A stretch of DNA of 64,000 nt from an uncultured Spirochaetota bacterium (GCA_963820525.1 CAWGAA010000001.1:1216001-1280000); one strand, 5' to 3'. Shown: positions 22,204 through 44,257, counted from the first letter of the stretch. Numbers and translations: made by a program. The notes: generated from the sequence alone by a model not told the origin.

Positions 22204-22236
22204 ATCATATAGGAAAAGCTTGCAAGGGGGAGCGGT

Positions 22237-24506: not shown

Positions 24507-24525
24507 TTTGCAGGAGGAAATGCCG

Positions 24526-24762: not shown

Positions 24763-24766
24763 TCCG

Positions 24767-25030: not shown

Positions 25031-25035
25031 ACCGC

Positions 25036-25329: not shown

Positions 25330-25349
25330 CCGAAGAATGGAGGGACGCC

Positions 25350-25718
25350 ATGAAGGATAAACCGAGATTTCTCCTCTGCGTTTGTCGGGGCGACTGTCCA
25401 GGTTTCGCGAAACTGGACATCTGGAAGTTCATCAACTTCGTGCGCAACGAGCTCGAAGTGGAATATGCCGTCGCGCACCCACAGATGTGCGTTGACGACG
25501 GCGACCGATTCTGGAAGGATTATGCGAAGAAAGGCGCAACGTATATCGTGGCGGGTTGCGATCCGAAGATGCAGCGCAAGATGTACAAGGACGCCCTCGC
25601 GGAAGTAGGATGCGATTTCGACAAGCAGGTATTCCCGATTGACCTGAGGAATATTCCCACGGAGGAGGCGATGCAGAAGATCAAAACCTTCGTGGAAGAG
25701 GTGAACAGTAGAACGTGA
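25350..25718 (+). CDS. Stand-alone protein resembling the N-terminal Fe-S domain of heterodisulfide reductase A
   Basis: LLCVCRGDC..HPQMC..IVAGCDP..IDLRN matches the HdrA N-terminal CxC..C..AC.P..NiR pattern. Confidence 0.65.
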   Translation: MKDKPRFLLCVCRGDCPGFAKLDIWKFINFVRNELEVEYAVAHPQMCVDDGDRFWKDYAKKGATYIVAGCDPKMQRKMYKDALAEVGCDFDKQVFPIDLRNIPTEEAMQKIKTFVEEVNSRT

Positions 25719-25792
25719 TGCTCTTCCCTGGCTCGCGGACCGGCGATGGAACTCTGCCTTGCTGCGGCCAAAGATCATCATGCTGTGGATGA
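25718..25792 (+). CDS. 24-aa Cys-rich peptide MLFPGSRTGDGTLPCCGQRSSCCG (below the ORF-track cutoff)
   Basis: ATG overlaps the upstream stop (TGATG), GAGGTG lies upstream, and the stop abuts the acr3 RBS. Confidence 0.55.
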   Translation: MLFPGSRTGDGTLPCCGQRSSCCG

Positions 25793-25807
25793 GAGGAGTA
25801 GCAATTC

Positions 25808-26911
25808 ATGCAGGGAAGGACGATCTCCAAACTTTCATTTCTCGACCGTTTTCTGACTCTCTGGATCTTTCTCGCCATGGCGGTGGGGGTGGGAATCGGA
25901 TACCTGGTTCCCGGGGTCGAGCCGTTCATGAACAAGTTCCAGGCAGGCACGACCAATATCCCCATTGCGATTGGGCTTATCCTGATGATGTATCCTGTTC
26001 TGGCCAAGGTGCGCTATGAGGCGTTCGCAACGGTGTTCCGCCATGGGAAAACCCTCGCACTCTCCCTGATCGCCAACTGGATCGTCGGGCCCATTGTGAT
26101 GTTCACGCTCGCCATGCTCTTCCTTCACGGACATCAGGAGTATGCCATCGGCCTGATCCTGGTCGGGCTTGCGCGCTGTATCGCCATGGTGCTCGTATGG
26201 AACGATCTTGCCAAGGCTGACAGGGACCTCGTGGCCGGGTTGGTCGCTTTCAACGCGGTCTTCCAGGTGCTGTTCTACAGCGTCTACGCGTGGATCTTCG
26301 TCACGCTTCTGCCGCCGATTTTCGGCATGAAGGGAAGCACCGTCGATGTGCGTATGGCCAAGATCGCCAAGAGCGTGTTCATCTACCTGGGCATACCTTT
26401 CCTTGGGGGGATCGTCACGAGATTCGCTCTCATGGGATTGAAAGGACGCGACTGGTACGAAAAATCCTTCATTCCGAAGATCGCTCCGGTGACACTGGTG
26501 GCCCTTCTCTTTACGATTGTTGTCATGTTCTCCCTCAAGGGAAACCTGATCATCCAGCTTCCGCTCGATGTGGTGCGCATCGCGGTGCCGCTTGCGCTGT
26601 ATTTCGCGATCATGTTTATCGTCACTTTTTTCATTTCGCGGAGGATCGGATCCCCATACAAGCCGACCGCCACCGTAGCGCTCACCGCGGCGAGCAATGA
26701 TTTCGAGCTGGCGATCGCCGTGGCTGTCGCGGTGTTCGGAATCGGCTCCGGTGTGGCTTTTGCTGCGGTCATCGGTCCGCTGGTGGAAGTTCCTGTCATG
26801 TTGGGGCTGGTCAACGTTTCCCTCTGGTTCAGGCGGAAGCTCTTCGCAGACGATGGCGAGATGCCGGAAGCTGCGCCTGCCCCCCGACAATCCACGATGC
26901 GCCGCCCCTGA
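25808..26911 (+). CDS. acr3: Acr3 family arsenite efflux transporter
   Basis: [49 protein letters not shown]. Confidence 0.95.
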
Positions 26912-26935
26912 TGTCTCGGTGGATGCCTGGAGCGC

Positions 26936-27268
26936 ATGATGATAAAGACCACGATACAGGCAGGCATATGCGGCTTCACAACCACGGTGTTAGCTTGCTC
27001 GGAGGACATGCAGAACGTGACCCTCCAGATCACGAGTACCTGCGACAAGATCCGCGGGCTTGCCGCCGATCTCGGGATAGTTTACGCCTACCAGGAGATT
27101 GGCAATGGCTTCGACGGGACGGTTCACAAGGCGGTCCGGAAGCACTTGAATGGATGCTGTTCGGGCTGCGTTGTGCCGAGCGGTATCTTCAAGACCATGC
27201 AGGTCGCGGGCGGTGTCGCGCTCCCCACCCCTGTCTCATTCACGATCGAAAAGACGGAAAATGTGTGA
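26936..27268 (+). CDS. Small Cys-containing protein (DUF6951-like)
   Basis: IQAGICGFTT, ITSTC, CCSGCVVPSG..VAGGVALP. Confidence 0.6.
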   Translation: MMIKTTIQAGICGFTTTVLACSEDMQNVTLQITSTCDKIRGLAADLGIVYAYQEIGNGFDGTVHKAVRKHLNGCCSGCVVPSGIFKTMQVAGGVALPTPVSFTIEKTENV

Positions 27269-27277
27269 GGCGATGAA

Positions 27278-27781
27278 ATGGAATCAAACGCACAAGAGGA
27301 GAAGCAAAAGAGACATTCACCGATACGCCTGATCGTTTCGGTGATTCTCCTCGCCTTCGTCGGGGTGAGCGTGGGCTACCTCATCTGGACCCAATTCAGG
27401 CCACGCAGCAACGTTGCGGAGGTGAAAGGCGAGATCCCTCCAATGACGAGGGTCACGGTCTACTACTTCTACACCAATATCCGCTGTGCCTCCTGCAGGC
27501 GGATCGAGGCGTGGACGCGCGATACCCTCCAAGCGGCATTTCCAACCGAGCTTGCCAATGGCAGCGTCCAGTGGAAACCCATCAACGTAGAGGAACGCGG
27601 CAACGATCACTTCATCAAGGATTTCTCCTTGAGGGCGAAAACCGTCGTTGTCTGCCGAATCGTGAACGGAAAGACCGTGGAATGGAAGGACATGATCGAT
27701 GTGTGGATGTTTCTCTCCGACAATCCCCGATTCTCGCGGCTTATCTCTGATAAAGTACGTGAGTACCTCCAGAAGAGCTAG
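27278..27781 (+). CDS. ArsF-like membrane-anchored thioredoxin-fold protein
   Basis: N-terminal TM, VYYFYTNIRCASCRRIE; immediately precedes an ArsG-like gene. Confidence 0.7.
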   Translation: MESNAQEEKQKRHSPIRLIVSVILLAFVGVSVGYLIWTQFRPRSNVAEVKGEIPPMTRVTVYYFYTNIRCASCRRIEAWTRDTLQAAFPTELANGSVQWKPINVEERGNDHFIKDFSLRAKTVVVCRIVNGKTVEWKDMIDVWMFLSDNPRFSRLISDKVREYLQKS

Positions 27782-27783
27782 GC

Positions 27784-28476
27784 ATGGATGTATTTCTCTC
27801 ATCGGCAACGGCTCTCTGGCTGGGAGTTCTCACCTCGATCAGCCCCTGCCCGCTCGCCTCCAACATAGCAGCGGTCTCCTGGCTTGGCACGCGAGGCGGA
27901 CGCATTAAGGGGGCCGTAGCGGCCGGCTTGCTGTACACGGCAGGCCGCGTGGCCGCTTACGTAACACTCGGGGTCATTCTCGCCACCGGTGCGCTTGCAC
28001 TTCCTGCCGTGTCGCAATTCCTTCAGAAGTACGGCACGCGCATCCTCGGACCTCTTCTCGTGCTGATAGGAGTATTCGTATTGGAGTTGATTCGGTTTCC
28101 CCTCCCGCGGGGCGGGGATTTGGCGGCCGCGGTGGCCGAACGCGCCAGAAATCTCGGGACCGCACGCGCAATGCTTCTCGGCTTCCTCTTCGCGCTCTCC
28201 TTCTGCCCTGTTTCCGCGGCATTGTTCTTCGGAAGCCTTGTTCCACTGGCCATCCAGCAACGTTCGCCGATTCTTGCCCCGGCCATGTATGGCATCGGAA
28301 CAGGGCTGCCAGTCGTCCTTGCCTCTTTCCTTCTTTCGCTGGCGGGCAGCAGGATCAGCGAGCGGCTCGCGCGGATCACCCGCTTCGAACTCTGGGCCCG
28401 TCGGGTGACGGGCGTGATTTTCGTGGGAACGGGAATGTATCTCAGCCTGAAATACATCTTTCTCCTCATCCCTTGA
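27784..28476 (+). CDS. ArsG-like / CcdA-DsbD-fold membrane protein
   Basis: LTSISPCPLASN, LSFCPVSAALFFGSL, YGIGTGLPV. Confidence 0.75.
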   Translation: MDVFLSSATALWLGVLTSISPCPLASNIAAVSWLGTRGGRIKGAVAAGLLYTAGRVAAYVTLGVILATGALALPAVSQFLQKYGTRILGPLLVLIGVFVLELIRFPLPRGGDLAAAVAERARNLGTARAMLLGFLFALSFCPVSAALFFGSLVPLAIQQRSPILAPAMYGIGTGLPVVLASFLLSLAGSRISERLARITRFELWARRVTGVIFVGTGMYLSLKYIFLLIP

Positions 28477-28496
28477 GACGGAAAGGAGCTCCGCAA

Positions 28497-28982
28497 ATGG
28501 TCACTGGGATCGTATTCTACGCAATCGCGGCTGCACTTCTAGTTCTGTCCTTCGTCAAGGATCGCGCGAAAACACTTCAGGCGCTGAAAAAAGCCTGGAT
28601 GGCATTCGAGAGCATTCTTCCGCAGTTCCTGGGAATCATCGTGCTCGTTGGCATACTCCTCGCGGTGCTCGATCCCCAGAGGATTCAACGAATTCTTGGC
28701 AAATCATCGGGCATTCTGGGGGTCCTCATCGCTTCAATAATCGGGTCGATCACCCTCATACCGGGATTCATCGCTTTTCCCACGGCGGCCATGCTCCTGA
28801 AGGGTGGCGCGGGGTACATGCAGATGGGTGCTTTTATTTCGACCTTGATGATGGTGGGGATTGTCACTCTCCCAGCGGAGATCAGCTACTTCAACAGGCG
28901 AACTGCGCTCCTGCGAAACGCGCTGGCATACCTGTTCTCGCTCCTGGTCGCCTTGGTCATCGGGTTGATTATGGCATTATGA
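28497..28982 (+). CDS. Half-size DUF318-like permease subunit
   Basis: Hydrophobic; GSITLIPGFIAFP, FISTLMMVG..PAE..F..RN. Confidence 0.75.
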   Translation: MVTGIVFYAIAAALLVLSFVKDRAKTLQALKKAWMAFESILPQFLGIIVLVGILLAVLDPQRIQRILGKSSGILGVLIASIIGSITLIPGFIAFPTAAMLLKGGAGYMQMGAFISTLMMVGIVTLPAEISYFNRRTALLRNALAYLFSLLVALVIGLIMAL

Positions 28983-29539
28983 GGAAAGCACACATGAAAC
29001 CAGCTACGCGGAAAGGCTTGATAAAACGCTATTGGCTTCTAATCGCGGCTGTCGGTTGCGGCCTGGTACTCTGGCTTGTCAGCCGGCAGATGGGCTCGAA
29101 GATGATCAACGTCACCCTCTACAGCCTCAAGGAGATGATCATCGTCATCCCTCCAATCTTCATCATTCTCGGGCTCCTCGACGTCTGGGTCCCCCGTGAA
29201 CAGATGGTGCGTTTCCTAGGCGAAGGTTCGGGCGTGAAGGGAATCTTGCTGGCGATTTTCATCGGCTCGGCGGCCGCGGGCCCCCTGTACGGTGCGTTCC
29301 CCGTTGCCCAGGTATTTCTGAAAAAGGGGGCGAGCTTCCGCAACGTCATGATTCTCCTGGGCGCCTGGTCAACCACCAAGATCCCCCTGCTATTGTTCGA
29401 GCTTGCCAGCATGGGGCTTCGTTTCACCGTAACGCGCTTGATCGTGGACATGGCAGGGATTCTGATTATTGCCCTGCTCATGGAGTGGCTCATCAAGGAG
29501 AAAGACAGAGAAGAGATTCGGACCAAGGTGTGGCGATAG
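28979..29539 (+). CDS. Half-size DUF318-like permease subunit
   Basis: GLLDVWVP, AAGPLYGAFP, GAWSTTKIP..FE. Confidence 0.75.
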   Translation: MRKAHMKPATRKGLIKRYWLLIAAVGCGLVLWLVSRQMGSKMINVTLYSLKEMIIVIPPIFIILGLLDVWVPREQMVRFLGEGSGVKGILLAIFIGSAAAGPLYGAFPVAQVFLKKGASFRNVMILLGAWSTTKIPLLLFELASMGLRFTVTRLIVDMAGILIIALLMEWLIKEKDREEIRTKVWR

Positions 29540-29558
29540 GGATTCCTTCAAGGCACCG

Positions 29559-29665
29559 ATGCACCTGGTGAGCGTCAGCCGGGAGGGGTGGAACGTCTAC
29601 TGCCAGGCCATCAAGCCTGGGGTACTCGACATCATCGATGCGGCGGCACGAATGATCGCAGGCGG
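29559..29665 (+). pseudogene. Possible C-terminal relic of an ArsR-type regulator
   Basis: LVSVSREGWNVYC..PGVLDII resembles the ArsR wing region; no N-terminal half is present. Confidence 0.3.
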
Positions 29666-29846
29666 AAAGAGGAAGACTGGATTGCCCGGCAATTCCCATC
29701 AGCGGGGTTGCGCCTGCCCGAAGCGCAGCTTCGAACGCTCAAGACAGGCCGTGAAAATCAATCTGCCGCGGCACGCGCTAGGAGGATCGCTCCGAGCGGC
29801 AACGTTCTGCAAAATGAAGGCGCATCGGGAGGAAAACGTGTTTGGA

Positions 29847-30131
29847 ATGAAAAAGAAGGTTCATGGCGCGGCCATCCTCATTGCGGCATGTCTGCTCCTG
29901 GTATCATGCACCGGCACCGATATAAATCAGATCGAAATCAGGATGCCTGACTTGAGCAAAATCCCGGACGGAACCTACATCGGAACTCAAACGGTTTTTC
30001 CCGTTCGCGTTAAGGTTTCCGTCACAGTGGCATCCGGCAAGATCACGCGTTTCACGATCTTGAGGCATTTTCCCAGCGATCATGGCTTCAGCTCGATGCC
30101 GTGTCTGGTGCTACTTTCTCAAGCAAAGTGA
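29847..30131 (+). pseudogene. FMN-binding-domain lipoprotein, 3' truncated
   Basis: Lipobox LLVSC, IPDGTYIG..VKVSVTVASGKI; lacks the DxxSGAT flavinylation motif. Confidence 0.55.
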
Positions 30132-31113: not shown

Positions 31114-32522
31114 ATGAGTGAAATCCACGTTCAGCAAATTCGGGCACACCTGACAAGTTCCTTTCAAGGACTCATCGATGTTGCAGATTGCGTCGGAGAG
31201 CAAACTGAGGCGCGGGAGACACGCTTCTTGACTCGCGCGTTGGCTGCCTTCTCTTTAGTGCACGTGGCTGATATCGAACCGCCCATAGCTGCCACATATG
31301 TCACGGACGGTGGCCGAGACAACGGCGTGGACGCCCTCTACTACGACAATGTAGAAAAGATACTCTACATCGTTCAAGCCAAATGGGATCACGATGGTCG
31401 TGGTAGTCTCCAACGCGGAGAGGTGCAGAAGTTTCTAACGGGCGTCAAGGATCTGGTCAATGCCCGGTTTGACCGCTTCAACCCAAAGGTACGGGCCAAG
31501 GAAGCCGACGTTCGCGCTGAGCTCGAATCCGCTCAAACTCGCTTCGTCTTGGTAGCCGCATATACTGATCAGGAAGCACTAGCTGCTGAGCCTCAACGGG
31601 ATTTCGATGACTTCGTGAAGGAGATGAACGATCCGACAGACGTTCTCCAGTTAAGAATTCTCCATCAGGGAACGCTTCACAGCGCGATCTCGCGTGGAGC
31701 ACGCGGGGCACCGATTCATCTAGAAGTCGTCCTCCAGAATTGGGGTCAAGTGCGTGAGCCTTATCGAGCTTACTACGGTCAGGTCGCTGTCGCAGACGTC
31801 GCGGGATGGTGGGAATCCCACCATCCACGTCTCTTTGCACCTAATCTACGGATGTTCCTTGGGATGACCGATGTGAACCAGAGCCTCCTCGAAACTCTAA
31901 GAAACGATCCAGAGAACTTCTGGTATTTTAACAACGGTATAACTGCTCTCTGCGGGAATATCCAGAAGAAGCCGGTAGGTGGCAGTTCGCGAGACACAGG
32001 GGTCTTTGAACCGACGTATCGATCGTTAACGGTGCGCAGACGGTTGGTTCAATCGCTGCAGCTTATCGGACACACCCGGAGCAGGCCACCCGTGCGACAG
32101 TCTTCGTAAGATTCATTTCGCTCGAACAAGTGCCACCTGGCTTCTCTACCGAAGTCACGAGAGCGACGAATACGCAGAACCGGATCGAGCGACGAGATTT
32201 TGTTTCTCTTGATACAGAGCAGGAGCGTCTTCGTACCGAACTTCAATTGGATGGAGTCGATTATGTCTATAAATCGGGCGAAAAAATTCCTCAACCAGAT
32301 GTAGGTTTCGATCTCGCCGAAGCCACGGTAGCTTTGGCCTGTTCGTCGCCTGACGTATCGTTCGCAGTTCAGGCGAAACGCGAGATCGGCAAGTTGTGGG
32401 AAGACATTTCACGCGCACCTTATCGCGCCCTATTCAACCCAACAGTCACGGGTCGTAAAGTGTGGCTCCTAGTTACACTACTGAGAGCTATCGAACAGCA
32501 ACTGGCGGTTGAACGGGCCAGC
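31114..32522 (+). pseudogene. AIPR family protein, frameshifted (~32010) and 3' truncated
   Basis: DGGRDNGVD..VQAKW, NLRMFLG, PENFWYFNNGIT, then (shifted frame) SIVNGAQT and ATNTQN. Confidence 0.85.
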
Positions 32523-32643
32523 AGGATGCGGCAACGATACGCCTTACCCGGCGCATACGAGAACTGACACAACTTCGAGAGGCGAAGAAGCGCACGGTAC
32601 TGAATATTCTCGACGATTTGATCCGTGCTAACTCATAGAAACA

Positions 32644-32886
32644 TCGGTTTTGACGCTCCGGGCTTCCCTCGCCCCCCTTGCCGCCTCCCCCCTCCCCAGG
32701 CCCACCCCCTCCGCTTACCCCCCATCTATGGTATCCTTTGGTCGTCTGGGAGGGGATGGCTCAAAAGGGGGGCTTCGGTCGCGGTACGCTCCTCCCTCGC
32801 GGGCATCCTTGCCCGTTCACTCGTCGCTACCGCGAACCCCCTCCGCTGCAAGGGCTGTTTGGGCGCTGACGGGCTTCCGAGCGTCA
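32644..32886 (+). repeat. ~200-240 bp structured non-coding element, copy 1
   Basis: Homologous to 37841-38045 in inverted orientation; internal stems TCGCGGTA/TACCGCGA and CGGGCA/TGCCCG; bounded by TGACGCTC...GAGCGTCA. Confidence 0.85.
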
Positions 32887-33849
32887 TATGCGGTTATTCA
32901 TGGCCAATCTCCAATAGTACCGCCCGGAGGGGGTCAGCCGGCATGCCTTTGAGCGCATCGCAGCATCATACATATGCTGTGCATCGCAAGGCACGACGAG
33001 GTGAACTCGACTTAAGGTCTGAAGATCTCTGAAGATAGTCGTCTTGGCCGGGTCTGCAGTTGGCGAAGTAGGCTCATAGGAAGGATCAAGTAGAAGATCC
33101 TCGGCGGGCAACGGAAACAACGAGGGCAACTTGCGTAGAGTTTCTCGATCGACGGGGGGCGCGCATCGACGTAGCGGAATCAAACGAGAGACGTGCGACT
33201 TGAAAAGTGGTCGCTGATCCCACGCACCAAGTGCTGCATCGATATATGCGTACACACTCGGAGCTGTGACGGCGCCTAGGATGTCGGCCGCACCGCCAGT
33301 GAGAGCGTCTACTACCAGCGAAGTAAACAAACCACCGCCCCCGGTTTCAACGGAAGGCTGATCTCCTCGACTCGCGGTTAGTATGGAAAGCCCTTCTCGT
33401 AGAAGTGTCTTGGTATTGTCAACCGCAGGCGGGTTACCAAGTGCGCCAGAAAAGCAGCAATCTAGGAGAAGTACGACTTCCGCCGCTTTGGAGTCATTGG
33501 CCCACTTGAGGATATCGGCCATGGCGACACCCTCATCATATTTCTTGGCGTCTTGGGTTACTGGATAGCCATCGAGGTTATTGACGGTGCCGTGCCCAGA
33601 AAAATGTAATAGGGCGACATCTGCCTTATCTCGGAAAAGCTTCTCGATAGCTTCACGTAACGCCGCTCTTGTAATGAGATTGGGCGCGCCGCCAACAGGC
33701 GCGGTTAGAATCCGACAGTCGAAATTTGGTGATCCATCGTGATTCGTGGTAAGAACAGCAACAATTCTCTCCGCGTCGCTTACGCAGCCGCGAAGGGACC
33801 CGTCCGAATACTGATCGATTCCTACACAGAGTGCACGGCGCATATGCAA
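32884..33849 (-). CDS. Caspase-like (peptidase C14) protease, type IV Thoeris-like effector
   Basis: RALCVGID.Y..LRGCVSDA, HFSGHG (His), LLDCCFSG (Cys); directly downstream of a TIR gene. Confidence 0.9.
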   Translation of the reverse strand: MHMRRALCVGIDQYSDGSLRGCVSDAERIVAVLTTNHDGSPNFDCRILTAPVGGAPNLITRAALREAIEKLFRDKADVALLHFSGHGTVNNLDGYPVTQDAKKYDEGVAMADILKWANDSKAAEVVLLLDCCFSGALGNPPAVDNTKTLLREGLSILTASRGDQPSVETGGGGLFTSLVVDALTGGAADILGAVTAPSVYAYIDAALGAWDQRPLFKSHVSRLIPLRRCAPPVDRETLRKLPSLFPLPAEDLLLDPSYEPTSPTADPAKTTIFRDLQTLSRVHLVVPCDAQHMYDAAMRSKACRLTPSGRYYWRLAMNNRI

Positions 33850-33866
33850 TCCCCTGTTTTCCAGAG

Positions 33867-34256
33867 TCAGCGGGACCCGCCGATCAATGCCTTGAGATTA
33901 TCCCAAGTCCAATTGTAAATCTTGTCGCTATCTTTGGCGGCTTTTGGCTTCTTGCATGTCTTATTGGCCCGTCCCCAGAGTAAGAAGTAAGGTTTTCCCT
34001 CTTCTTGTGCAATCGTGAGTTCTGCGGACACCCCTGTGGCGGTGTCAGTGTATTCACCGCAGATCACCGCGACGATATCGACGCTACGAATTCGCGTTCG
34101 CACTTTGTCCTTCCAGTTACCCGTCATGGGCTCCTGCACTGACCAATCGGCTAGATCGAATGGAGAGTCGGGATGCTTCGCTTGGCCTACAAGAAGATTC
34201 CGTAGATCCTCGTCGTGATCGAAGTCGAAGCTAGTAAAAACGCGTTTCTTTGCCAT
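33867..34256 (-). CDS. ThsB-like (DUF1863/MTH538) TIR domain protein
   Basis: RVFTSFDFDHD, DWSV.E, VICG..T..GVSAEL (catalytic Glu)..KP. Confidence 0.88.
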   Translation of the reverse strand: MAKKRVFTSFDFDHDEDLRNLLVGQAKHPDSPFDLADWSVQEPMTGNWKDKVRTRIRSVDIVAVICGEYTDTATGVSAELTIAQEEGKPYFLLWGRANKTCKKPKAAKDSDKIYNWTWDNLKALIGGSR

Positions 34257-34324
34257 TTCACTCCCTCCTCTTCATCTTTGCGGCACTCAACGACTCCTGA
34301 CCGAGTTAAAAACGCGAAGCATCA

Positions 34325-35389
34325 TCAGCTCCAATCTGTTGTTAGCCGGCCTCTCGCACTGAACCACGTCACTTGCTGGATCCCGAAACTGTAATTGACG
34401 TCATACGATACGGGGATCGGGTAGACGAACCAAGAAGCATCTGGATATCGAGCTGATAACCATATAGCACAGGTAAAGATGACTGACTTCGGGCCGAATG
34501 GAAAAAGAAGAATCGGCGCCTTGCGAGGCTGAACCTCTTTTAGCAATTCATCCAGCACCATCTCAACTGTCATCGAATCGAGCACAGCTACACGTCTTCT
34601 TTCCCATTTCTGGGAGCGCATGCGACTCAGCTGCTGAAGCAGTCTCTGATTCCTTCGCAGCATGAGGTGCTTAAAATCTGGTCTTCCAGGATACTCTGGA
34701 ATCAAGATCCGACCACCCGCAGGTTCTATCTCACCAATTGCCACGACAAGACGTTGGGCCTCATGGCCAGGTATTATAATTCCGCGGCCATCAGTCTCGT
34801 AGAACAGACTAGCACCTTCCGCTAATGGGGCAATGATGATATCAGACCATGCTGTCGGACCCTCTAATCGCTCATCTAAGAATCCATAGTTCTCGGGGAT
34901 CACATATGCCACGATTGCGCCTCGGTCCGTCTCCAAAGCTAAAAAGGCACCAATGGCCATTGTGTGGATCTTCGTCAAGCAACTTACATCTAGAATCATG
35001 ACATCATATGGCTGCGCGTTACATACCGTCTCAAAGAGCCTCCTCACCTCGTCGAATGCATACGGCGACAGCTTTTCAACTCGCAAGGCATTCTGGAATA
35101 GTCCGCCCGCAAGTTCCATCAATCGTGACTTGTTAAGAGCGCGTTTAATCTCTCCTTCGGGCTGCGGGACAATGCCCGTATCATATTCGATAAGGATTCC
35201 ATCAGTTAGCCGTACGCCCATATTACGGAGTTGAATAAGCGTCCCTATGCATCTTTCCTCAAAGCTTAGCGCACCGATCCATACCGATCTCTCCGCGCTT
35301 CGCACAGCTGCTAGCACGTGCTCGTCAGAGAGGGACTTAACATACTGTGGTGTTATTCCCTGTTGCTGACCTACGCTTGGCCGCTTCAT
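34325..35389 (-). CDS. Hypothetical protein with two Rossmann/CARF-like repeats
   Basis: SFEERC..ILDVSCLTK..YVIPENY and IIPGHEAQR..LFPFGPKS..VYPIPVSY; start overlaps the upstream stop (TAATG). Confidence 0.6.
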   Translation of the reverse strand: MKRPSVGQQQGITPQYVKSLSDEHVLAAVRSAERSVWIGALSFEERCIGTLIQLRNMGVRLTDGILIEYDTGIVPQPEGEIKRALNKSRLMELAGGLFQNALRVEKLSPYAFDEVRRLFETVCNAQPYDVMILDVSCLTKIHTMAIGAFLALETDRGAIVAYVIPENYGFLDERLEGPTAWSDIIIAPLAEGASLFYETDGRGIIIPGHEAQRLVVAIGEIEPAGGRILIPEYPGRPDFKHLMLRRNQRLLQQLSRMRSQKWERRRVAVLDSMTVEMVLDELLKEVQPRKAPILLFPFGPKSVIFTCAIWLSARYPDASWFVYPIPVSYDVNYSFGIQQVTWFSARGRLTTDWS

Positions 35390-37609
35390 TACTTAGGCTG
35401 TTGCCTCCACTGCCGAAACCGCTCAAGGAAGAGTCTGGCCTCCTCACGTACGCTTGAAGGCTTCACTACGACTACGGTATCTTCGCATCGTGACAAGCCC
35501 TCCGCGGTATACTCTCTCTCCTTTGCGTCCGGAGGCTCAACGACGACGATTCTCCGGGAAAGCTTCTTCGCGCCGTAACCAGCGTCCGGACGAGCCACTA
35601 CAGCCCCGCACACATAGTGTGCGAAGGCGTCCCACTCTGTGCCATCAAGAGTAACGACTAGAAAACTTGCAAGAGTAGCTCTCTCCAGGATCTTAGCGGG
35701 GGGATCTTGGTCAGAATAGATTTCCGCATGTATATTCTCTCGTTGTGTGAGGGTTTGGAACTGCTTGGTGGCCTGACTGGTCCAATCGGTCGGTTTAATC
35801 CAAACGAGCAATGCAGGGAGCGGAGGTGGGTTTCCTCGCCGAGGTCTCAGGCTCGGATCTGCAAGATGAGCCTCAATGCTTGCCACGAGATCTCCCAGGT
35901 CCAGCCCGCTCTGGAACTCTCCAACTTGCCTTCGCCTCAGCCAGTATGGTAATTCGCTTCGCGCGCCCGCAGCGACTACAGGAAGGAGAGGTACACCGAG
36001 GCCATAAGCGAAGCCGAGTTCGAACACAACCTCGGGTCTCATCCCTGTGCAATCGCCTACGACAAGGCTCGAGGAACCAATCCGACGTCGAATCTCCTCG
36101 GCCCAATCCTCGGTTCCAACCGGCACCCACCCATTTTGCACTTTCACTGTCGCAAGGCGTGAATGCACCGAAAGTTCTTGTTCCAATGCCACACTAAATG
36201 CCTTGCTCTCTTCGGAATGCATCCTGTATGCGATGAAAACGCTTGGAACTGGCGATGGACCTCCACGCACTCTCCTGAAATCTTGTTCCCGTATCTTGAG
36301 AGGTTCTAAGCGTTCGGCATCAGCATACGACCACCTCGGATCTCCCGGCTGCCACATCAACAACGGCGGTACTTCGAGTAGTGTTGGGCAGTCGCCTGGT
36401 AGCCAAATTCGCCCATTAGGTATGCACAAAGCAGCTGATCGGAGAGCCGCCTCAATAAATAAGAATAGACGTGTCGGCTCGGGAATCAGGAGCGGCTCGT
36501 TCTCCGGTAAGATATTCAAAGTCACGGGACCGCGCACCTGACCGACCTTTTTAATGACCTCCTTTCGAAGCCACGAGATCGCCTCTCCGTAATCTTGATG
36601 GTGTGGTCGGAGCTTCGTCTTAACAGCCATAAAGTATAGTTCCCTGAGATCCACTAACGCTTCGATCAAATTCCCATCGATATTATCTTCTCGTGAAGGT
36701 GCCACTCGCGCAATGACTTCTAGGGCCAAGCGAATGGAGTCTCGAGATAGTGCGATCACCGCATCAAGCCGGTCTCTTCCGATTCGCTTCAGGAGCTCCT
36801 CTCCCACTTGAGCTGCCAGAGCGTCACTAACAAAGTCCGCCCATTCCTTCGTAAGCGGACTACGCCCAAGGTTGTACACGTCGTAGTGATCTCCCGGAGC
36901 GCTACTCTCGTCTAGACGTGTAACAATTCCACTGCCATGACCTGGTCTCGTTGCTACCAAAGCGGTATAGCCCGGCGACTGATCCATCAACTGCAGTACT
37001 GGGACTAGTGCCAACGGCGATACTAGATCAGCCCTATCCAGTAGCAATAATAACGACCCCTCCGCTCGCAATGATGCCTCTGCAGCTTCACGTCCAAACT
37101 CGACAAGCGGTCGCGTCATCGGAACTGATTCGAACACTGGCAGACTTGCCCGGGATACGCGAATTTTCGCTTCCCACAACCAGTCTCTGAGACTTCGAGG
37201 CATTCTACCCAATAGCGTACGTGGGATGCACTCCGCGACTGCATCTCGATTAACGCGTACCCGCTTTCGCAGCAGTCTACTCGCGATCGAAAGCGACAAG
37301 AGCGCCGATGCCTTGTTCCCGACGAAGTCGGAGCGTACACCGGACGCCTGACGAACGAGTGGTCCGAGAGCATCTTGACGTGCGAGGCTCGAAAGTTCGG
37401 TCGCCAGTGACAGATGAAGCGCTACGCCATCATGAATGGCTTTCTGGTAGCGAAGAAGCGTTGTCTTCCCAACTCCCTTGGACCCTGCAGATGAGCGCAC
37501 TTCTTGAAAACGACCCGGGTAACTCCGGCGGTCGCTGGAATATCCTTTCCACATCGTCGTCAGGTATTTTTTCCCCGTCAGTCCAAAGAGTTAATTGCCT
37601 GGATCCCAT
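35389..37609 (-). CDS. P-loop ATPase fused to C-terminal TIR / nucleoside deoxyribosyltransferase-like domains (1-nt frameshift near 37486)
   Basis: Removing one base joins MGSRQLTL..SALIC to GSKGVGKTT (Walker A). Walker B LLLLDRAD; C-terminal VFIAY..IGSSSLVVGDCT..PEVVFELGFAYGLG.P. Confidence 0.75.
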
Positions 37610-37840: not shown

Positions 37841-38045
37841 CAGCAGCGTAGGGCTCGCGGTAGCGACAAGCGAGCGGGCAAGGATGTCCGCGAGCGAGGA
37901 GCGTACCGCGATCGAAGCCCCCCTTTTGAGCCACCCCCTCCCAGACGACCACAGGATACCATAGCCGGGGGGGTAAGCGGAGGGGAGGGCCTGGGAGGGG
38001 GAGGCGGCAAGGGGGGCGAGGGAAGCCCGAAGCGTCAAGCCGATT
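37841..38045 (-). repeat. ~200 bp structured non-coding element, copy 2 (inverted relative to copy 1)
   Basis: Minus strand begins ATCGGCTTGACGCTTCGGGCTTCCCTCGCCCCCCTTGCCGCCTCC and aligns with 32644-32850. Confidence 0.85.
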
Positions 38046-38378
38046 CGAGCGGTCCCTCCGAGTATTCTGTAAGAGTGTTGCCACAGTCCGACGCAAAGTC
38101 ATCCACTTGTTAGTTTCCCTTTAATTATGGAGCGCAGCTTACTCTTCCAACCACTTGTGTGTAGCACTCTCTCGAAAGACTCACCGTACTTGCCCGAAAG
38201 GAGGTCAATGCGGCTCTTCTTGCTGAGCTCTTCCCATTCTTCAAACATAACGTAGACTGCATTGCCATATTCTATGTTCTCAAAAACAACAAGATCGTCT
38301 CGCATGAGTGCTCCGAAGTAGCGCCGGAATCCACTGGTTCCGAAAACTAGCTTCTGAGGCTCTAGGGTCATGAAGAAA

Positions 38379-39421
38379 AGGGGGATATTTACTTCGCGGC
38401 ACCTGAAGTGGTATCCTGACGCGTGGCTAATATTAGCTGTTTTGTTCCGCGCGCCGGAATAGACTACCCGAGGAACATTACCGAGTTCCATCAGTTATTT
38501 CCTGATGAGAATAGTTGCCGGCGCTACCTTCAAAACGTTAGATGGAGGGATGGCTTTGTTTGCCATGCATGCGGCAGAAACGGTGATCCTTGGCACGCCA
38601 TGCGCGACGTTTTGTTATGTCCGTACTGTCGCTCTAAAACAAGATTGACAGCAGGAACCGTTTTCGAGGGTACTCGCAAGCCTCTAAAGATGTGGTTTCT
38701 TGCGATGTGGGAGCTGACCAGCCAGAAGTATGGAGCCAACGCGCTTGGACTTCAGCGCGATCTCGGCCTGAGAAGCTACACAACCGCCTGGGCGTGGCTT
38801 CACAAGCTCCGGCGAGCGATGGTACGTCCAGGTCGGGATCGACTTCACGGTCATGTGGAAGTCGATGAGAGCTACATTGGAGGAGAAGAATCCAACGTCA
38901 AAGGCCGCCAGACGACCAAAAAGGCCATCGTTGCAATCGCGGTTGAACTTAACGATGGAAGAATGGGGCGTATACGCCTACGGCACGTAGCTGATATTAC
39001 GGCGAAAAGCCTTCAAAGTTTCGTTACAGACGTTGTAGAACACGGTAGTACCGTGAGAACAGACGGATTGTCGTCATATGTCGGGCTCGATACTCTCAAG
39101 TTCAAGCACGATGTGACCGTGCTTTCAGATTCACATGATCCTGCACACGTCCAGATGCCGAGCGTACATCGTATTGCTGCGCTTCTTAAGCGTTGGCTGC
39201 TGGGTACCCTTCAGGGTTCAGTTAGCACTGAACATCTGCCGTACTATCTTGATGAGTTTACCTTCCGGTTCAACAGGCGTACATCAAATTCCCGCGGGAT
39301 GTTGTTCTACCGACTTCTCGAGCAAGCGTTGCTGGTCGGCCATGTCAGCACAAGGCAGCTTTTCAAGAAAACCGGGCGGGGCGTGCGGCATTCATTAGGT
39401 GCCGTGAAGTAAATATCCCCC
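38379..39421 (+). mobile_element. IS1595 family insertion sequence
   Basis: Terminal inverted repeats GGGGGATATTTACTTC(G/A)CGGCACCT; 8-bp direct repeat TGAAGAAA at 38371-38378 and 39422-39429. Confidence 0.92.
38423..39412 (+). CDS. IS1595 family DDE transposase
   Basis: Zn ribbon CHAC..CPYC, VEVDESY, VRTDG, YLDEFTFRFNRR. Confidence 0.93.
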   Translation: MANISCFVPRAGIDYPRNITEFHQLFPDENSCRRYLQNVRWRDGFVCHACGRNGDPWHAMRDVLLCPYCRSKTRLTAGTVFEGTRKPLKMWFLAMWELTSQKYGANALGLQRDLGLRSYTTAWAWLHKLRRAMVRPGRDRLHGHVEVDESYIGGEESNVKGRQTTKKAIVAIAVELNDGRMGRIRLRHVADITAKSLQSFVTDVVEHGSTVRTDGLSSYVGLDTLKFKHDVTVLSDSHDPAHVQMPSVHRIAALLKRWLLGTLQGSVSTEHLPYYLDEFTFRFNRRTSNSRGMLFYRLLEQALLVGHVSTRQLFKKTGRGVRHSLGAVK

Positions 39422-40140
39422 TGAAGAAATCATACCTATTACCCGCAGAGTCCTTTTCCGCTTTTGAAGCGACCCGACCGCGGAAGAGCCTTTCGATTGC
39501 TTCCTTCCGGGTTCCAGGTGGCAGAATTTCCCAAGACAAATGAAGTGACTTGGTGTACTTCTCCAGCGGCGTCTGGGCGGCCTCCACGCTGCAGGCACCA
39601 ACGCTTTCTTGAAGGAGATTGAGGTTTTCAAAAAGACGTTGCTTAAATCCACGAGAGCCCTTTCTGAGGGTGTGGTTAACCTTGAATGATATTGCATATG
39701 CAGGCAAGCCAGGTTCGGTCGAGATCGGCTGGATAACTATTTCTGTTTCTTGTGGTGGCTTGAATTCCCGCTGGAAGCACTCGTGAGGCAAATCGACCGC
39801 GTGATATCCTTTGTAGGGATCGCCCCAGTTGGGCGTCTCCACGGTTGTATAATGGGTTACTTTCGGTAGACCTTTGCGAATAATCTCCTGGCCGTTGGCA
39901 TTTGCGCGTGAATACCGGCCACGGTCCGCCGGGGGCATTTTCGATGCTGGAGCAGTCAGGCCTTTTGGGCTCAGTCTGATGCCGAGATGTCGCAAGATTC
40001 CTTTGCGCAGCTGAGAAGAACTGAACTTAAGAGCGCAGGCTACCACGATGTCCTCTCCCTCAATTTGATTGAGCTTCTCGATGACCTGCCTGGGAATCTT
40101 GCGGATATTCCGTTTCATGGCCTATGTCTCCTTGTCAGTA

Positions 40141-41181
40141 TTAATGCCAACAGAAGCTTGGTGCGGCCGCGAGCCCAGTCCGAACGCCATCACTTCTCCT
40201 CCACATGGGGGGCAACCCTTTGCGACTCAGGACTTCCCAATGGTTCGTTTTGAGGCCCTTGATCAGTTTCTCAGTCTCCTCTAATGCTTGGAGCAGCTCT
40301 TGGTCGTTTTTCAGGTTTGCCAGCGTAGTCCAAGGATAGCCTTTGATGGTTTCAGCCAGTGCCTGGATGTCCCCGGCAAGACCCGGCCGTCTCTTCGTCT
40401 GAACGGGCCCGAGCTTCAGAAGAGCCGACTCGACTGAGCCGTCGTTCGATAGGAAGTCGTCTCGCGCCACGGGATCTGGCAATATCTGTCGCAGTTTTCT
40501 CACATCCTTGGAGTTCGTCATCTTCTGGTCGTTGACCTTCTTGATGACGGCGTTGAGCACATCTTGAGTTAGCAGTTTTCGGTTGAGGTTCTTGATTTCG
40601 CGGGCCCAAGTGATCGACGTCGATGGGTCAGGCAGATTCGTGAGCTTCTCCGAAAGCTGATAAATCTCCACCAGCTTGTCCAAGTCACGAACAGTGGTGC
40701 CGAGTATATTGGCGGCGCTGGCGCGGCCGACCAAATCGACCAACCGGTAGGCCACCATCTCTTTCTCTTTCGCGTCCCATTCCTTCCTCTGGCGGTGGAT
40801 GTATATCCACACCCTGAGCCGCTCGTCGTCGCTTAGAGTCCGGTCCGTAATTTCTGCGGGGAATGTGCGGTATTGCTCCTTTTTGTTAACCTCGACTAGG
40901 ATCTTCGAGTTGCTCCATCGGCGATCTCCGTCAATGATGCGGAACTTCCCAGGGTGGTCGGGATGGGGCTCAAGCAGGAGCGGCTCGAAGATCCCCTCGT
41001 TCGCTTCGATCTGCCGTTGGAGTTCGGGGTCTTCCTTCGGCCCTAATCGCGGCTGATTCGCGTTTGGTAACACGTCGTCCAAACCAACGGTAGCCCGACG
41101 CGTTCTCAGAATCGTTCGTTCAAGCCGCCTTTCATGCCAGGGACTACCTGGAGGTGCGTTCTCAAGGGATTCTTGGCTCAT
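40141..41181 (-). CDS. ParB/Srx N-terminal domain protein
   Basis: PNANQPR, GIFEPLLL, FRIIDGDRRW. The true end may be ~40227 if one base of a homopolymer is spurious. Confidence 0.8.
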   Translation of the reverse strand: MSQESLENAPPGSPWHERRLERTILRTRRATVGLDDVLPNANQPRLGPKEDPELQRQIEANEGIFEPLLLEPHPDHPGKFRIIDGDRRWSNSKILVEVNKKEQYRTFPAEITDRTLSDDERLRVWIYIHRQRKEWDAKEKEMVAYRLVDLVGRASAANILGTTVRDLDKLVEIYQLSEKLTNLPDPSTSITWAREIKNLNRKLLTQDVLNAVIKKVNDQKMTNSKDVRKLRQILPDPVARDDFLSNDGSVESALLKLGPVQTKRRPGLAGDIQALAETIKGYPWTTLANLKNDQELLQALEETEKLIKGLKTNHWEVLSRKGLPPMWRRSDGVRTGLAAAPSFCWH

Positions 41182-41188
41182 CTGCCCC

Positions 41189-42397
41189 TCACTTCGTGCC
41201 TTCATGCGAAGAAGCCCGACCTTCAATTATCGCGCTAACTTCGGTATCGATCACCCCTACTGCGTTCCGCAGCCGAGTGGCCATCTTTCCTCTCTTCTCC
41301 CAGGTCTTGTCGTGGGTACGTTTCTCCTCAACATCGAGATCAAGTATCTCATTCGACAAGCGTGTGGCTTCGACCAAGTGCTGTCGGAAAACCTCTGAGG
41401 CGATGTATTTATAGAGTTGCTCTTTCTTGTTAGCCTTCTCGGTCTGGCTCAGCTTGAGAGCACTCATGCGGGTCATAGCCTCACGGAGCAGGCGGACGAT
41501 CTCCACCGCCCGAGCACGGTTGACTACGATTACCCCTGTCTCCTTGTCGACGTAAAGCTCCTTCTTTCCCCGGGGGTAGACCGTAGTGGCCAAGACCGCG
41601 TGCTCTGCCTTCTCCGCCATTTGATCTTCACGCAGCTTCGTCACGTACGAGTTCTGCCAGCTATTGCGGTTCTTTGAGTCGATGAGGATAGTCCCACACG
41701 ACTCGCCCCTGTAAATTACCTGGTGGCGTATATCTGCGCCTGGCTCGCCCCTCTTAACGCGCTTAATGTCGTCACGGGCGAATGCATCGCGCAGAGCATC
41801 AAAGACATCAATTTCTGCACCTTCTCCGAGCTCATCCGCGGTTTTGTGTTGCACCTGGCGCGTCAGGGCATCAATCTTCTGCTGGAGCTGCTCGCGCTCG
41901 CGATTGTTCTGGACCTGTACCTTGAGGACCTGCGAGTCGCGGTCCTTTTCCAGAACTGAGCGCTGCTGCTCCAGTTCCTTCTTGTTTGCGGTTTCGAGCT
42001 GCTTCAGCTTCGCAGTGGCCTCGTCCCTCTCTGCCGCGAGAGTGGATAGCTTGCCGCTCGCTTCTTCCTTGACTCGGGCCTCGGCCTGGGCCGCGGCTTG
42101 CTTGCGAACTGCTGCTTCGTTGTCTTGCAGTTCTTTGATTTTCGCGGCTGCCTTGTCCCGCTCGGCGGTTATCTCAGCGAGTTTCCCGTCGGCTTCCTTC
42201 CTTAGCCGCGCCTCCACCTTCTGCATCTTGGCGCTGAACTGCTGCTCCATCAGAGTCCGCTCTTCAGCCAGTTTCTGATGTTCCTCCTCTGCGATTTTGT
42301 TCTTGATCTCGATGAATTTCACCCGCGAAATCGTGGATCCACACCACGGGCACTTCTCTGTGGCTACCCGAGACCGAACAGCGACCTCTGTGCTCAT
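41189..42397 (-). CDS. DUF2130-like coiled-coil protein with a C-terminal nuclease-like domain
   Basis: N-terminal CPWC, long coiled coil, then ELGEGAE..F..D.I..VKRG.PGAD..CGTILIDSKN..W..KLREDQ. Confidence 0.75.
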   Translation of the reverse strand: MSTEVAVRSRVATEKCPWCGSTISRVKFIEIKNKIAEEEHQKLAEERTLMEQQFSAKMQKVEARLRKEADGKLAEITAERDKAAAKIKELQDNEAAVRKQAAAQAEARVKEEASGKLSTLAAERDEATAKLKQLETANKKELEQQRSVLEKDRDSQVLKVQVQNNREREQLQQKIDALTRQVQHKTADELGEGAEIDVFDALRDAFARDDIKRVKRGEPGADIRHQVIYRGESCGTILIDSKNRNSWQNSYVTKLREDQMAEKAEHAVLATTVYPRGKKELYVDKETGVIVVNRARAVEIVRLLREAMTRMSALKLSQTEKANKKEQLYKYIASEVFRQHLVEATRLSNEILDLDVEEKRTHDKTWEKRGKMATRLRNAVGVIDTEVSAIIEGRASSHEGTK

Positions 42398-42559
42398 AAG
42401 GCACCTCCCCTCTCCCTCCTTAGAAGGAGTCAAAAGGAGTATACTACTCCTTTTATGTCCTTGTCAAGTCTTTCTACAACGAAATCTCCGGGGTTCCTTT
42501 CGCCCGACGAAAAGCCAATTGACTGCAATGCCTTGATTGTATGACTATGCTCCATCACC

Positions 42560-43360
42560 ATGCCGGACCCATCGGCCACCAGCAATATCCACGAGAGGAT
42601 CAAAAAAGCCGCCTCCCTCATTCGCTCCGCGCGCTACCTCACCGCCTTCACGGGCGCGGGCATCTCCGTGGAGAGCGGCATCCCGCCCTTCCGCGGCCCC
42701 GGCGGGCTGTGGAACAAATACGACCCACGGATGCTGGAGATCGACTACTTCCTGGCCAACCCCGGGAAGGCATGGCCGGTGATCCGCGAGATCTTCTACG
42801 ACCACTTCGGCCGCGCGCGGCCCAACCGCGCTCACCAGGTGCTCGCCCGCCTGGAGAATGAGGGGTTGGCGCGCGATCCCGACGGCCCTGGCCGCCTCCA
42901 GGTCCTCATCACCCAGAACATCGACAACCTTCATTTTGAGGCCGGCTCGCGGAAGGTCGTCGAGTTTCACGGAAACTCACGGACCCTTGTCTGCATGGCT
43001 TGCCGAAAGAGCCGCCCCGCGGAGCCGAAGTTGCTGGAAGTCCTTCCTCCCCGCTGTCCCTGCGGCGGCATCTACAAGCCGGATTTCATTTTCTTTGGAG
43101 AAGGGATCCCGCCGCGCGCACTGGCGGAGTCGCAGGATGCCGCGCGGAAAACCGATGTCATGCTGGTGGTCGGCTCCACGGGAGAAGTGTATCCGGCCGC
43201 GGGCGTTCCGCGCCAGGCCAAGGACGGCGGCGCCAAAATCATAGAGATAAATCCCTCGATGTCGGAGTTCACAGTCTCCGTGACCGACCTCTTCATCCCG
43301 CTGGGGGCGGGAGAAGCCCTCGCGCTCATCGAGCAGGAGCTCACCGGCACGCAACCATGA
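42560..43360 (+). CDS. cobB: NAD-dependent protein deacylase (Sir2/CobB)
   Basis: [27 protein letters not shown], Zn Cys pairs, FFGE, GST. Confidence 0.92.
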
Positions 43361-43756
43361 AGGAGAACCTGAAGATGAAGCTCATCGACCTTCGAAGCGA
43401 TACCGTCACCCGGCCGTCGCCGGAGATGCGCAAGGCCATGTACGACGCCGAAGTGGGAGACGACGTGTACGGGGAAGACCCCACGGTGAACAGGCTCCAG
43501 GAGCTGTCGGCCGAAATCACGGGCAAGGAGGCGGCGCTGTTCGTGAGCTCCGGCTCCCATGGGCAACCTCATCCCCATTTACCTCAACTGCGGGCGTGGC
43601 AACGAGCTGCTGATCGATTCCCGCGGCCATGTCATCAACTATGAAATGGCATCTGTGGCAAACATCGCAGGAAGCCTGCCCGTCGCCATCCCCACGGAAA
43701 AGGGAATCCTCGCGGCGGAGCAGCTTGGGGAGCGCATCAGACCGGACATCTATTAA
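43357..43756 (+). pseudogene. ltaE: Low-specificity threonine aldolase, N-terminal third only (frameshift ~43557)
   Basis: [27 protein letters not shown]...YE; ends abruptly. Confidence 0.85.
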
Positions 43757-44257
43757 AATGGCTTGGAACGGCGGGGCGTCGCGAGCTTTTTTGCGAAACA
43801 GCGCGCCCGACTCATCGCCGTCTACAAGTTTGCCGAGGAACGCAATCTCCTTGTTTGCGGGAGCGCCCATAAATCCGAGGACTACGTCGGGCTCTACGTC
43901 AAATTCGGCGTCGACGACGCGGCGGACATCATGCCGCTCAAGTACCTTTACCGGACGCAAATTCTGCAACTTGCCGAACACTTAAACGTCCCTCCGGAAA
44001 TCAGGGCGAGGACGCCCAACCCAGATCTTGTCCCCGGCGTATCGGACAAATACCGCGACATCCTCCATCTCGAATCGGGGAAGCTGGATCTCCTGCTCTA
44101 CGGGATCGAGCGGGGAATGAAGACAAACTTGATCGCCGAGGCCTTAGACATTCCGCAAAAAAAGGTGCTTGAAATCGAGGAGCTCGTCAGGCTCACGGCG
44201 CATATGCGCAATCCGGTCATGGCGCCCGTATTGAACGGAAAATGCCGGATGGCCTGA
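43757..44257 (+). pseudogene. nadE: C-terminal half of an NH3-dependent NAD+ synthetase
   Basis: KQRAR..Y..AE..LVCGS.HKSE..GLYVKFG.D.AADIMPL..LY.TQ; lacks the N-terminal SGGxDS motif. Confidence 0.75.

Follow-up and report, generated by a model that had tools for sequence, protein, structure and literature searches.

Two probably separable two-gene anti-phage modules, packed as one repeat-bracketed cassette, in an uncultured Spirochaetota bacterium

We analyzed a stretch of 64,000 nucleotides (nt) of DNA from an uncultured Spirochaetota bacterium (GCA_963820525.1 CAWGAA010000001.1:1216001-1280000; the whole stretch is hereafter referred to as the window, and positions are counted from its first letter), in which four minus-strand genes at 32884-37609 encode an AAA+ ATPase, a CARF-like protein, a TIR protein, and a protease that resembles caspases. 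These genes probably represent two anti-phage modules of two genes each, separable from one another, that share a co-oriented cassette flanked by inverted repeats of about 190 nt, a reading to which we assign a probability of roughly 0.62. The TIR and caspase genes (tentatively referred to as module A) resemble type IV Thoeris, and the ATPase and tandem-CARF genes (module B) form a rare and apparently undescribed two-gene module. The initial annotation, made from the sequence by itself, had placed all four genes in a single expanded immune pathway, and had offered a separate two-gene system as its fallback. The single pathway fits less well than two separate two-gene units and is not supported as the default reading. 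The fallback is the better fit: the ATPase–CARF pair is a conserved unit of its own (15 of 15 informative loci), about a dozen other loci of this pair with usable flank stand without TIR or caspase, and relatives of the caspase greatly outnumber those of the ATPase. The remark that the two upstream genes lie outside the TIR–caspase core is supported.

The ATPase open reading frame (ORF) at 35389-37554 (minus strand; 721 amino acids, aa) is followed by the CARF-like gene (34325-35389, minus strand; 354 aa), which encodes a stand-alone tandem-CARF protein and whose start codon shares 1 nt with the stop codon of the ATPase gene. Downstream lie the TIR gene (33867-34256, minus strand; 129 aa), which is of the ThsB type with Glu79, and the caspase-like protease gene (32884-33849, minus strand), which encodes 321 aa from a TTG codon or 319 aa from Met3 as in its homologues, and has His86/Cys132 and a conserved C-terminal domain. 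Recomputed from the ORF coordinates, the gaps between the four co-oriented genes are -1, 68, and 17 nt, the same values as first annotated; the TIR–caspase gap becomes 23 nt with the Met3 start found in the 319-aa relatives. The real N-terminus of the ATPase is encoded in another ORF (37430-37609; 59 codons), which is discussed below together with the frameshift that separates the two.

The left arm of the inverted repeat (32650-32839) lies 45 nt beyond the caspase stop codon, and the right arm (37851-38038) is 91% identical to it; the arms are 86% complementary over 151 nt and 98% complementary over 42 nt. The left arm folds more stably than shuffled sequence on both strands (z-scores -3.6 and -3.0). 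This GC-rich repeat is present in four copies in the source genome (G000), namely the two inverted copies that bracket the cassette and two solitary intergenic copies, 72-74% alike, at G000:C1:1362554-1362718 and G000:C2:473691-473855. Scanning the window for Rfam families and tRNA genes gave no matches, the repeat belongs to no Rfam family, and the repeat arm gave only a chance-level microRNA match. The repeat looks like an element of the MITE (miniature inverted-repeat transposable element) type, and may move the cassette as a unit.

In module A, the TIR protein matches the Pfam family ThsB_TIR (PF08937; E-value 1.2e-5, above the curated cut-off), the caspase matches Peptidase_C14 (PF00656; E-value 3.2e-13), and the ThsB and caspase models of PADLOC match the two proteins respectively. 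The EACC1-associated caspase model NF047832 scored 88.1 bits on the window caspase, under its curated cut-off of 140, and only metacaspases match this protein by sequence in the PDB. The window caspase has thousands of relatives more than 70% identical to it, a figure that rests on at least 2,396 clusters (a lower bound from the 8,000 candidates scored), the 120 clusters listed being 71-86% identical and nearly all 319 aa long. A tblastn search of a plasmid collection located the caspase on 59 plasmids; 50 of the matches span 80% or more of its length. In both plasmid regions that were opened (E. coli pCREC-591_1 and Proteus pPp47), a TIR gene of 124-137 aa lies directly upstream of a 317-aa caspase gene, and nothing besides these two genes is common to the two regions. 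The window caspase aligns with the two plasmid caspases from end to end, including the C-terminal domain, at 46-53% identity, and the window TIR is 38% identical to the TIR of the E. coli plasmid and 34% identical to that of the Proteus plasmid.

The caspase motifs G-H86-G and D-C-C132-F-S-G are invariant across seven aligned sequences, in keeping with the intact His/Cys dyad noted at the outset, and E79 is invariant across four aligned TIR sequences, as is E512 in the alignment of the ATPase, so that a catalytic-type Glu was rightly seen in both the small TIR and the ATPase-fused domain. In the type IV Thoeris preprint, the substitutions PsTIR E79Q and PsCaspase C129A abolish defense (Rousset et al., 10.1101/2024.10.24.620036), and Glu79 and Cys132 (130 counted from Met3) of the window proteins are at positions equivalent to the mutated Pseudomonas E79 and C129. 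Judged by layout and by homology to the TIR-linked caspases and TIRs of the plasmids, rather than to the tested Pseudomonas or E. coli 328 sequences, the two genes appear to be a type IV Thoeris-like pair, which is how they had been read from their two-gene layout. By homology, the TIR would make an ADP-ribose-derived signal on infection, and this signal, which in type IV Thoeris is N7-cADPR, would activate the caspase-like protease via its C-terminal domain. The Thoeris pair looks intact in the source genome.

For module B, we examined 26 ATPase loci besides the window (2 genome loci, 23 metagenome loci, and 1 further genome locus). The CARF gene directly follows the ATPase gene in each of the 15 loci whose sequence includes the ATPase 3' end together with about 150 nt or more past it (L001, L002, L004, L005, L007, L008, L010, L012, L013, L015, L018, L021, L024, L032, and the window), and the two genes usually overlap by a few bases (1-4 nt). 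When all ORFs of at least 50 aa from the 26 loci and the window were compared with each other, only the ATPase and CARF families were widely shared; apart from antisense shadows of these two genes, no other gene family occurs in more than 2 of the 27 sequences. The ATPase family comprises 16 clusters, and a profile search for more relatives gave the same 16, a number that is a lower bound from the 8,000 scored candidates sharing most words. The ATPase was found in none of 400 other genomes of the source phylum. Our literature searches found no description of a pair of an ATPase with an NDT/TIR-fold domain (NDT, nucleoside 2-deoxyribosyltransferase) and a tandem CARF, the main text being the part of the TIR-system survey preprint covered, so that its Table S1 could list one.

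The ATPase starts with an ORC/Cdc6-like AAA+ domain (36535-37485, minus strand; residues ~24-340 of the 721-aa ORF), with Walker A at G24-T31, Walker B LLLLDRAD (D173 and D176), and RDSIR (271-275), which we take to be sensor-2-like. It is followed by an NDT/TIR-fold domain (35836-36252, minus strand; residues 435-573) and a C-terminal flavodoxin-like alpha/beta domain (35398-35814, minus strand; residues 581-719; pLDDT about 90) with invariant W591, D642, H646, G650, and R667. Across the alignment of 14 sequences, Walker A (GSKGVGKT), LLLLDRAD, RDS (271-273), D501, R506, and E512 in a VFELGFA motif are invariant. Among the 14 aligned members, PF24389 (ORC-CDC6-like; best E-value 1.3e-6) and AAA_22 are matched by 13, AAA_16 by 12, and nSTAND_NTPase5 is touched by 3 (E-value 0.016). 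No repeat-type sensor domain, such as the C-terminal repeats of STAND/NLR-type proteins, is present in the ATPase model or alignment; of the earlier label "NLR-like ATPase," the ATPase part stands, with an ORC/Cdc6-like AAA+ domain, and the NLR-like part is a loose label.

By sequence, the domain at residues 435-573 is matched weakly by Nuc_deoxyrib_tr (PF05014) in 5 of the 14 members (best E-value 0.0088) and by TIR_2 in 1 of 14, and the PADLOC "Effector TIR" model matches residues 484-537 (54 residues only; E-value 3e-6). An AlphaFold model of the ATPase ORF (mean pLDDT 76.8, pTM 0.47) was then compared with known structures. In a search independent of Foldseek, residues 435-573 best match MilB (4ohr; Z 13.7, 132 residues, root-mean-square deviation 3.0), followed by the SfSTING TIR (Z 12.9), several NDTs and TIRs (Z 10-13), Rcl, and the TIRs of MAL, MyD88, SARM1, and Cat1, and the C-terminal domain (581-719) has one row of its own (7p9b, Z 9.8). 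Foldseek with the whole 721-residue model gave generic tandem Rossmann-type matches only (TM about 0.15), and profile and single-domain searches against PDB sequences gave nothing useful. The label "TIR/NDT" given earlier to the ATPase-fused domain is borne out by the MilB and SfSTING matches: residues 435-573 are predicted to form an NDT/TIR-fold, N-glycosidase-like domain with a conserved Glu, an assignment that is right at the level of the fold.

The second protein of module B, first annotated as CARF-like, is matched over nearly its full length by the PADLOC CARF6 model (E-value 7e-12), and its structural model, built from 10 sequences (pLDDT 82.7, pTM 0.87), best matches Can1 (6sce; Z 15.1 over 240 residues across both CARF halves; 48,161 chains searched). 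Csm6, Can2, Card1, Cdn1, and Csa3 follow, and then SAVED domains; the top 13 of 13 rows are CARF proteins, including VC1899, which we take to be one although its title names no CARF. Can1 also has the highest TM-score in Foldseek (0.51). The conserved loop residues are G39-x-x-S42-F-E44, R46, D134-x-S-x-x-T-K140, and H142 in the first half, and G208-H209-E and G299-P-K301 in the second, and presumably fit the ligand-loop signature of CARF domains (after strand 1 and strand 4). When 1.84 billion representatives were searched in full with HMMER, 440 clusters matched this protein, 170 of them at an E-value of 1e-30 or better. All 150 relatives listed (126-390 aa) stand alone with no fused effector, and the complete ones are about 320-360 aa long. 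No match was found in the plasmid collection or viral contigs, and the profile was found in 2 of 401 Acidobacteriota genomes. The second gene is thus modeled as a stand-alone double-CARF protein, for which binding of a nucleotide messenger is a prediction only.

The two proteins of module B are also predicted to contact each other. Complex prediction gave ipSAE scores of 0.72, 0.72, and 0.69, compared with 0.00 for the best of three controls; in a benchmark, 116 of 157 solved complexes attain this mark, as do 2 of 215 mismatched pairs; the contacts of the models agree to at least 83%, and the partner pLDDT is at least 77. On the ATPase side, the interface lies in the AAA+ domain (residues 49-67, among them the family-invariant G64-P65-L66, 131-137, 174 and 177 by Walker B, 275-285, and 302-317), and on the CARF side in the conserved segments 179-198 and 212-221, so that the CARF protein is predicted to sit on the nucleotide-binding side of the ATPase. 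Beyond these domain folds, the conservation, the gene pairing, and the predicted contact, we infer the ligand, the direction of control, and the chemistry of module B as follows: the CARF subunit would bind a nucleotide messenger in its two conserved loop pairs, which would alter its grip on the AAA+ domain; the ATPase would then assemble and bring the NDT/TIR-fold domains together; and the gathered domains would degrade NAD+ or nucleotides.

Among 25 loci searched with phmmer, TIR and caspase genes are present beside the ATPase–CARF pair only in the window and in L001. The queries were the four window proteins and the TIR, caspase, and CARF of L001, and the targets were all stop-to-stop ORFs of at least 60 aa. 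A Pfam scan of 50 flanking ORFs, drawn from 113 greedy ORFs with the ATPase/CARF ORFs and far flanks left out, found no TIR or caspase outside L001. Loci with at least about 1 kb of flank on one side were L002 (the same as L006), L003, L007, L009, L012, L014, L015, L019, L018, L022 (the same as L023), L024, and L025. The suggestion that the two pairs might never co-occur elsewhere is answered by L001, an Acidobacteriota metagenome-assembled genome (MAG) that packs all four genes on the same strand in another order (TIR, caspase, ATPase, CARF; gaps of 18, 27, and -4 nt). Its caspase and TIR are 42.5% and 22% identical to those of the window, and are no closer to them than are the E. coli plasmid genes. 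Because the gene order is permuted and the Thoeris genes of L001 are only distantly related, the two arrangements, compared by sequence, point to two independent juxtapositions rather than one inherited system.

Elsewhere, the neighbors of the pair include DndC-like, DndD/PbeC-like, and HNH genes, as well as genes for a type II restriction enzyme, for an integrase accompanied by a coupling protein and a relaxase, and for transposases and TPR proteins, and its flanks are a defense-island and mobile-element setting. In a Blastocatellia MAG (L002 4281-7742, the same in L006), the DndC-like, short DndD/PbeC-like, and HNH genes lie directly upstream of the pair on the same strand, with a gap of 174 nt, and in L008 a type II restriction enzyme gene (3715-4341) comes after the pair. 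At L009, the end of a second CARF-like gene (2-217, plus strand) was observed about 2.3 kb upstream of the ATPase gene, with four small unannotated genes between, and may reflect tandem copies of the module.

In the source genome, module B is probably dead. The true 5' end of the ATPase gene (37487-37609, minus strand) encodes the conserved N-terminus up to ...SALIC, in agreement with how 13 uninterrupted homologues begin; the sequence in the upstream ORF is ...WTDGEKIPDD...FSRSALIC, as in the family. The frameshift site (37484-37489, minus strand) has one extra base at 37486, where the initial annotation had put it, between codons TGC (37489-37487) and GGG (37485-37483) and directly before Walker A, which continues in another frame. 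The extra base breaks Walker A, and, all four cassette genes being single-copy in the 5.05-Mb source genome, the module has no second ATPase copy to fall back on. Programmed frameshifting was rejected: all 13 aligned homologues are uninterrupted (about 730-750 aa), and there is apparently no slippery pattern at the site. The assembly does not seem to be riddled with indels, because rpoB (1,183 aa) and uvrA (1,100 aa) are open without stops, a 2,009-aa uvrA-like frame is also unbroken, and the genome has 288 stop-to-stop frames of at least 800 aa. With long housekeeping genes intact while neighboring genes are also broken, the frameshift is probably real rather than an assembly error; that it might be real and the ATPase dead had been raised from the start, and is probably true here, although intact long genes and broken neighbors are not proof. 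An ATPase that is intact in the organism, with the extra base an assembly error and module B live, is a possibility that we consider doubtful. Public contigs (3 runs, one study) match parts of the stretch and break on both sides of the frameshift site, none covering 37444-37517, and three frame breaks within about 12 kb could mean a locally poor consensus; yet long genes elsewhere in the genome are unbroken, the extra base is outside any long homopolymer, and the neighboring breaks accompany truncations and gene fragments, beyond what indel error can make. No RNA dataset was among the public runs listed as matching the stretch.

Whether the two modules work together has to be weighed against these observations. 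One integrated four-gene pathway, in which a signal made by ThsB or by the NDT/TIR-fold domain is read by both the caspase and the tandem CARF, so that one alarm drives two effectors or acts as a relay, is unlikely in our view. In two unrelated genomes, and in two orders, the four genes form a tight same-strand group, and such independent acquisition of partners suggests selection for linkage; the CARF ligand loops are highly conserved; and, because the source genome has no match to a SMODS cyclase or Cmr2-type Cas10 that could feed the CARF (Csm1-type Cas10 was not searched), the neighboring TIR is the nearest candidate signal maker. However, neither TIR nor caspase accompanies the pair in about a dozen other ATPase–CARF loci that have usable flank, the 16 ATPase clusters (a lower bound) stand against TIR-linked caspase relatives in the thousands, and in the one hybrid-operon precedent to be tested, the systems acted in synergy while their effectors were not cross-activated (PMC13069673). 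As ancillary genes, the survey of TIR systems names Cap2/3 and Cap9-11 in its main text, which reports no CARF or ATPase. Less probable still is a specific form of coupling, in which the CARF protein would cap the ATPase nucleotide site until a messenger comes, the messenger in window- and L001-type operons being the ThsB TIR product; if true, one Thoeris alarm would fire two unrelated killers, the caspase and an NAD+/nucleotide-degrading AAA+ assembly, which would make it the first case, outside CRISPR, of a CARF receptor tied to TIR signaling. It seems equally improbable that the CARF-only protein is a ring-nuclease-like off-switch that degrades the messenger, rather than a sensor controlling the ATPase. 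It does lack an effector domain, as do its top 150 relatives, it has many invariant polar residues in the ligand loops (S42, E44, R46, D134, K140, H142, H209, and K301), it matches Sso2081 in structure (Z 8.9), and CARF-only ring nucleases are known (PMC12669027); but the close binding to the AAA+ domain that is predicted for it, and the gene overlap of 1-4 nt, suggest a stable subunit, and ring-nuclease structures are not its best fold matches.

Plain defense-island crowding, in which the modules neither cooperate nor signal to each other and the cassette is decaying, is conceivable, though we think it the weaker explanation. The pair is also found on the same strand next to the Dnd-like and HNH genes and beside the restriction enzyme gene, and the island has several broken genes and an IS1595 element in addition to the frameshifted ATPase. 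Against it, with 573 systems reported among ~46,000 genomes (PMC13069673), type IV Thoeris is carried by about 1% of them, and two direct adjacencies among about 13 loci exceed the rough expectation. We retain the reading of two separable modules in one cassette, which may help each other in a way analogous to Pycsar and type IV Thoeris in hybrid operons. Several points weigh against this reading. The two tight same-strand adjacencies among about 13 distinct loci, being above a chance estimate that is itself rough and without a formal test, make a functional link plausible. Between the CARF and TIR genes there is no clear promoter or terminator, with pattern matches at chance level. Most metagenome loci are short, so that more distant TIR–caspase genes could go unseen, and TIRs are divergent enough for phmmer or Pfam to have missed one. 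As for module B itself, the Pfam and NCBIfam scan of the window's own ATPase ORF matched no family. The complex model began at ATPase residue 30, with the first strand and part of the P-loop absent, and the modeled contacts at residues 31, 174, and 177 could be an artificial filling of the absent segment. The alignments behind the complex were shallow (14 and 10 rows) and unpaired, and its score expresses model confidence and is no measurement. Finally, the gap in the public contigs over the frameshift leaves an assembly error possible.

The surroundings of the cassette contain further elements and gene remnants. Upstream of the left repeat arm, an AIPR/AbiU-like abortive-infection gene (31114-32567, plus strand) is split into two frames near 32110; it ends before the arm and lacks roughly the final fifth of the AIPR profile. 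Beyond the right arm is an IS1595-family element (38379-39422) with a 329-aa transposase and 26-nt terminal inverted repeats, flanked by two unannotated ORFs (38099-38491 and 39363-40118, both minus strand) that may be halves of one interrupted gene. Next to these, a ParB N-terminal domain gene overlaps a DUF2130 gene with a weak LmuB-like PADLOC match (40141-42433, minus strand, the same strand as the cassette). A SIR2-family gene (42560-43357) lies just upstream of a threonine-aldolase-like N-terminal fragment (43360-44254, plus strand), which has a frame change near 43560 and is directly followed within that span by a C-terminal fragment of NAD synthase. On the other side of the cassette, an arsenic-resistance cluster (18668-30128) encodes an ArsA ATPase, an ArsR regulator, ArsP-like permeases, and an SBF/Acr3-like carrier, together with a tandem universal stress protein and a DsbD-like membrane protein, and lies within a lower-GC stretch (52-58%) that runs to about 42 kb.

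Compared with known systems, module A shares with type IV Thoeris (ThsB TIR and caspase-like ThsE) the TIR–caspase pair and the equivalent catalytic Glu79 and Cys (10.1101/2024.10.24.620036), and differs in that it follows two more co-oriented genes within a repeat-bracketed cassette. The closest parallel to the whole cassette is the hybrid operons that join Pycsar with type IV Thoeris (Liu-DS6), reported from 107 genomes, with synergy between systems whose effectors are not cross-activated (PMC13069673). There, too, a type IV Thoeris pair is joined to a second two-gene nucleotide-signaling module in one operon, whereas the partner in the window is an AAA+/NDT-fold ATPase with a tandem CARF rather than a cyclase with a membrane effector, and the 107 reported operons compare with 2 ATPase–CARF–Thoeris loci seen here (PMC13069673).

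The tandem-CARF protein resembles Can1, a nuclease activated by cA4 (cyclic tetra-adenylate), in having two unlike CARF domains in one chain as a pseudo-dimer; unlike Can1, it has no nuclease domains and no CRISPR link, and is a bare sensor module. The TIR-SAVED and Cat1 (CARF-TIR) effectors of type III CRISPR/CBASS similarly couple a CARF/SAVED sensor to a TIR-fold N-glycosidase, and 7qqk and 9mud are among the fold matches, but in the window one protein carries the sensor and another the TIR-fold domain, the link between them being the AAA+ ATPase, with no adjacent cyclase. N-glycosidases of the NDT family (MilB, Rcl/DNPH1, and nucleoside 2-deoxyribosyltransferases) match the fold of residues 435-573 best (Z 11-13.7), the window domain has an invariant Glu in a VFELG motif, and one ATPase homologue is named "nucleoside 2-deoxyribosyltransferase" by its source; in contrast to these enzymes, the window domain is fused to an AAA+ ATPase and has no significant Pfam sequence match.

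To our knowledge, nearly all CARF sensors described so far are partners of type III CRISPR. A bare double-CARF protein whose fixed neighbor is an AAA+ ATPase carrying a TIR/NDT-fold domain, with no CRISPR or cyclase gene nearby, suggests a further way to read nucleotide alarms. Its repeated and seemingly independent joining with type IV Thoeris would be a second example, after Pycsar–Thoeris, of signaling systems linked in one operon.

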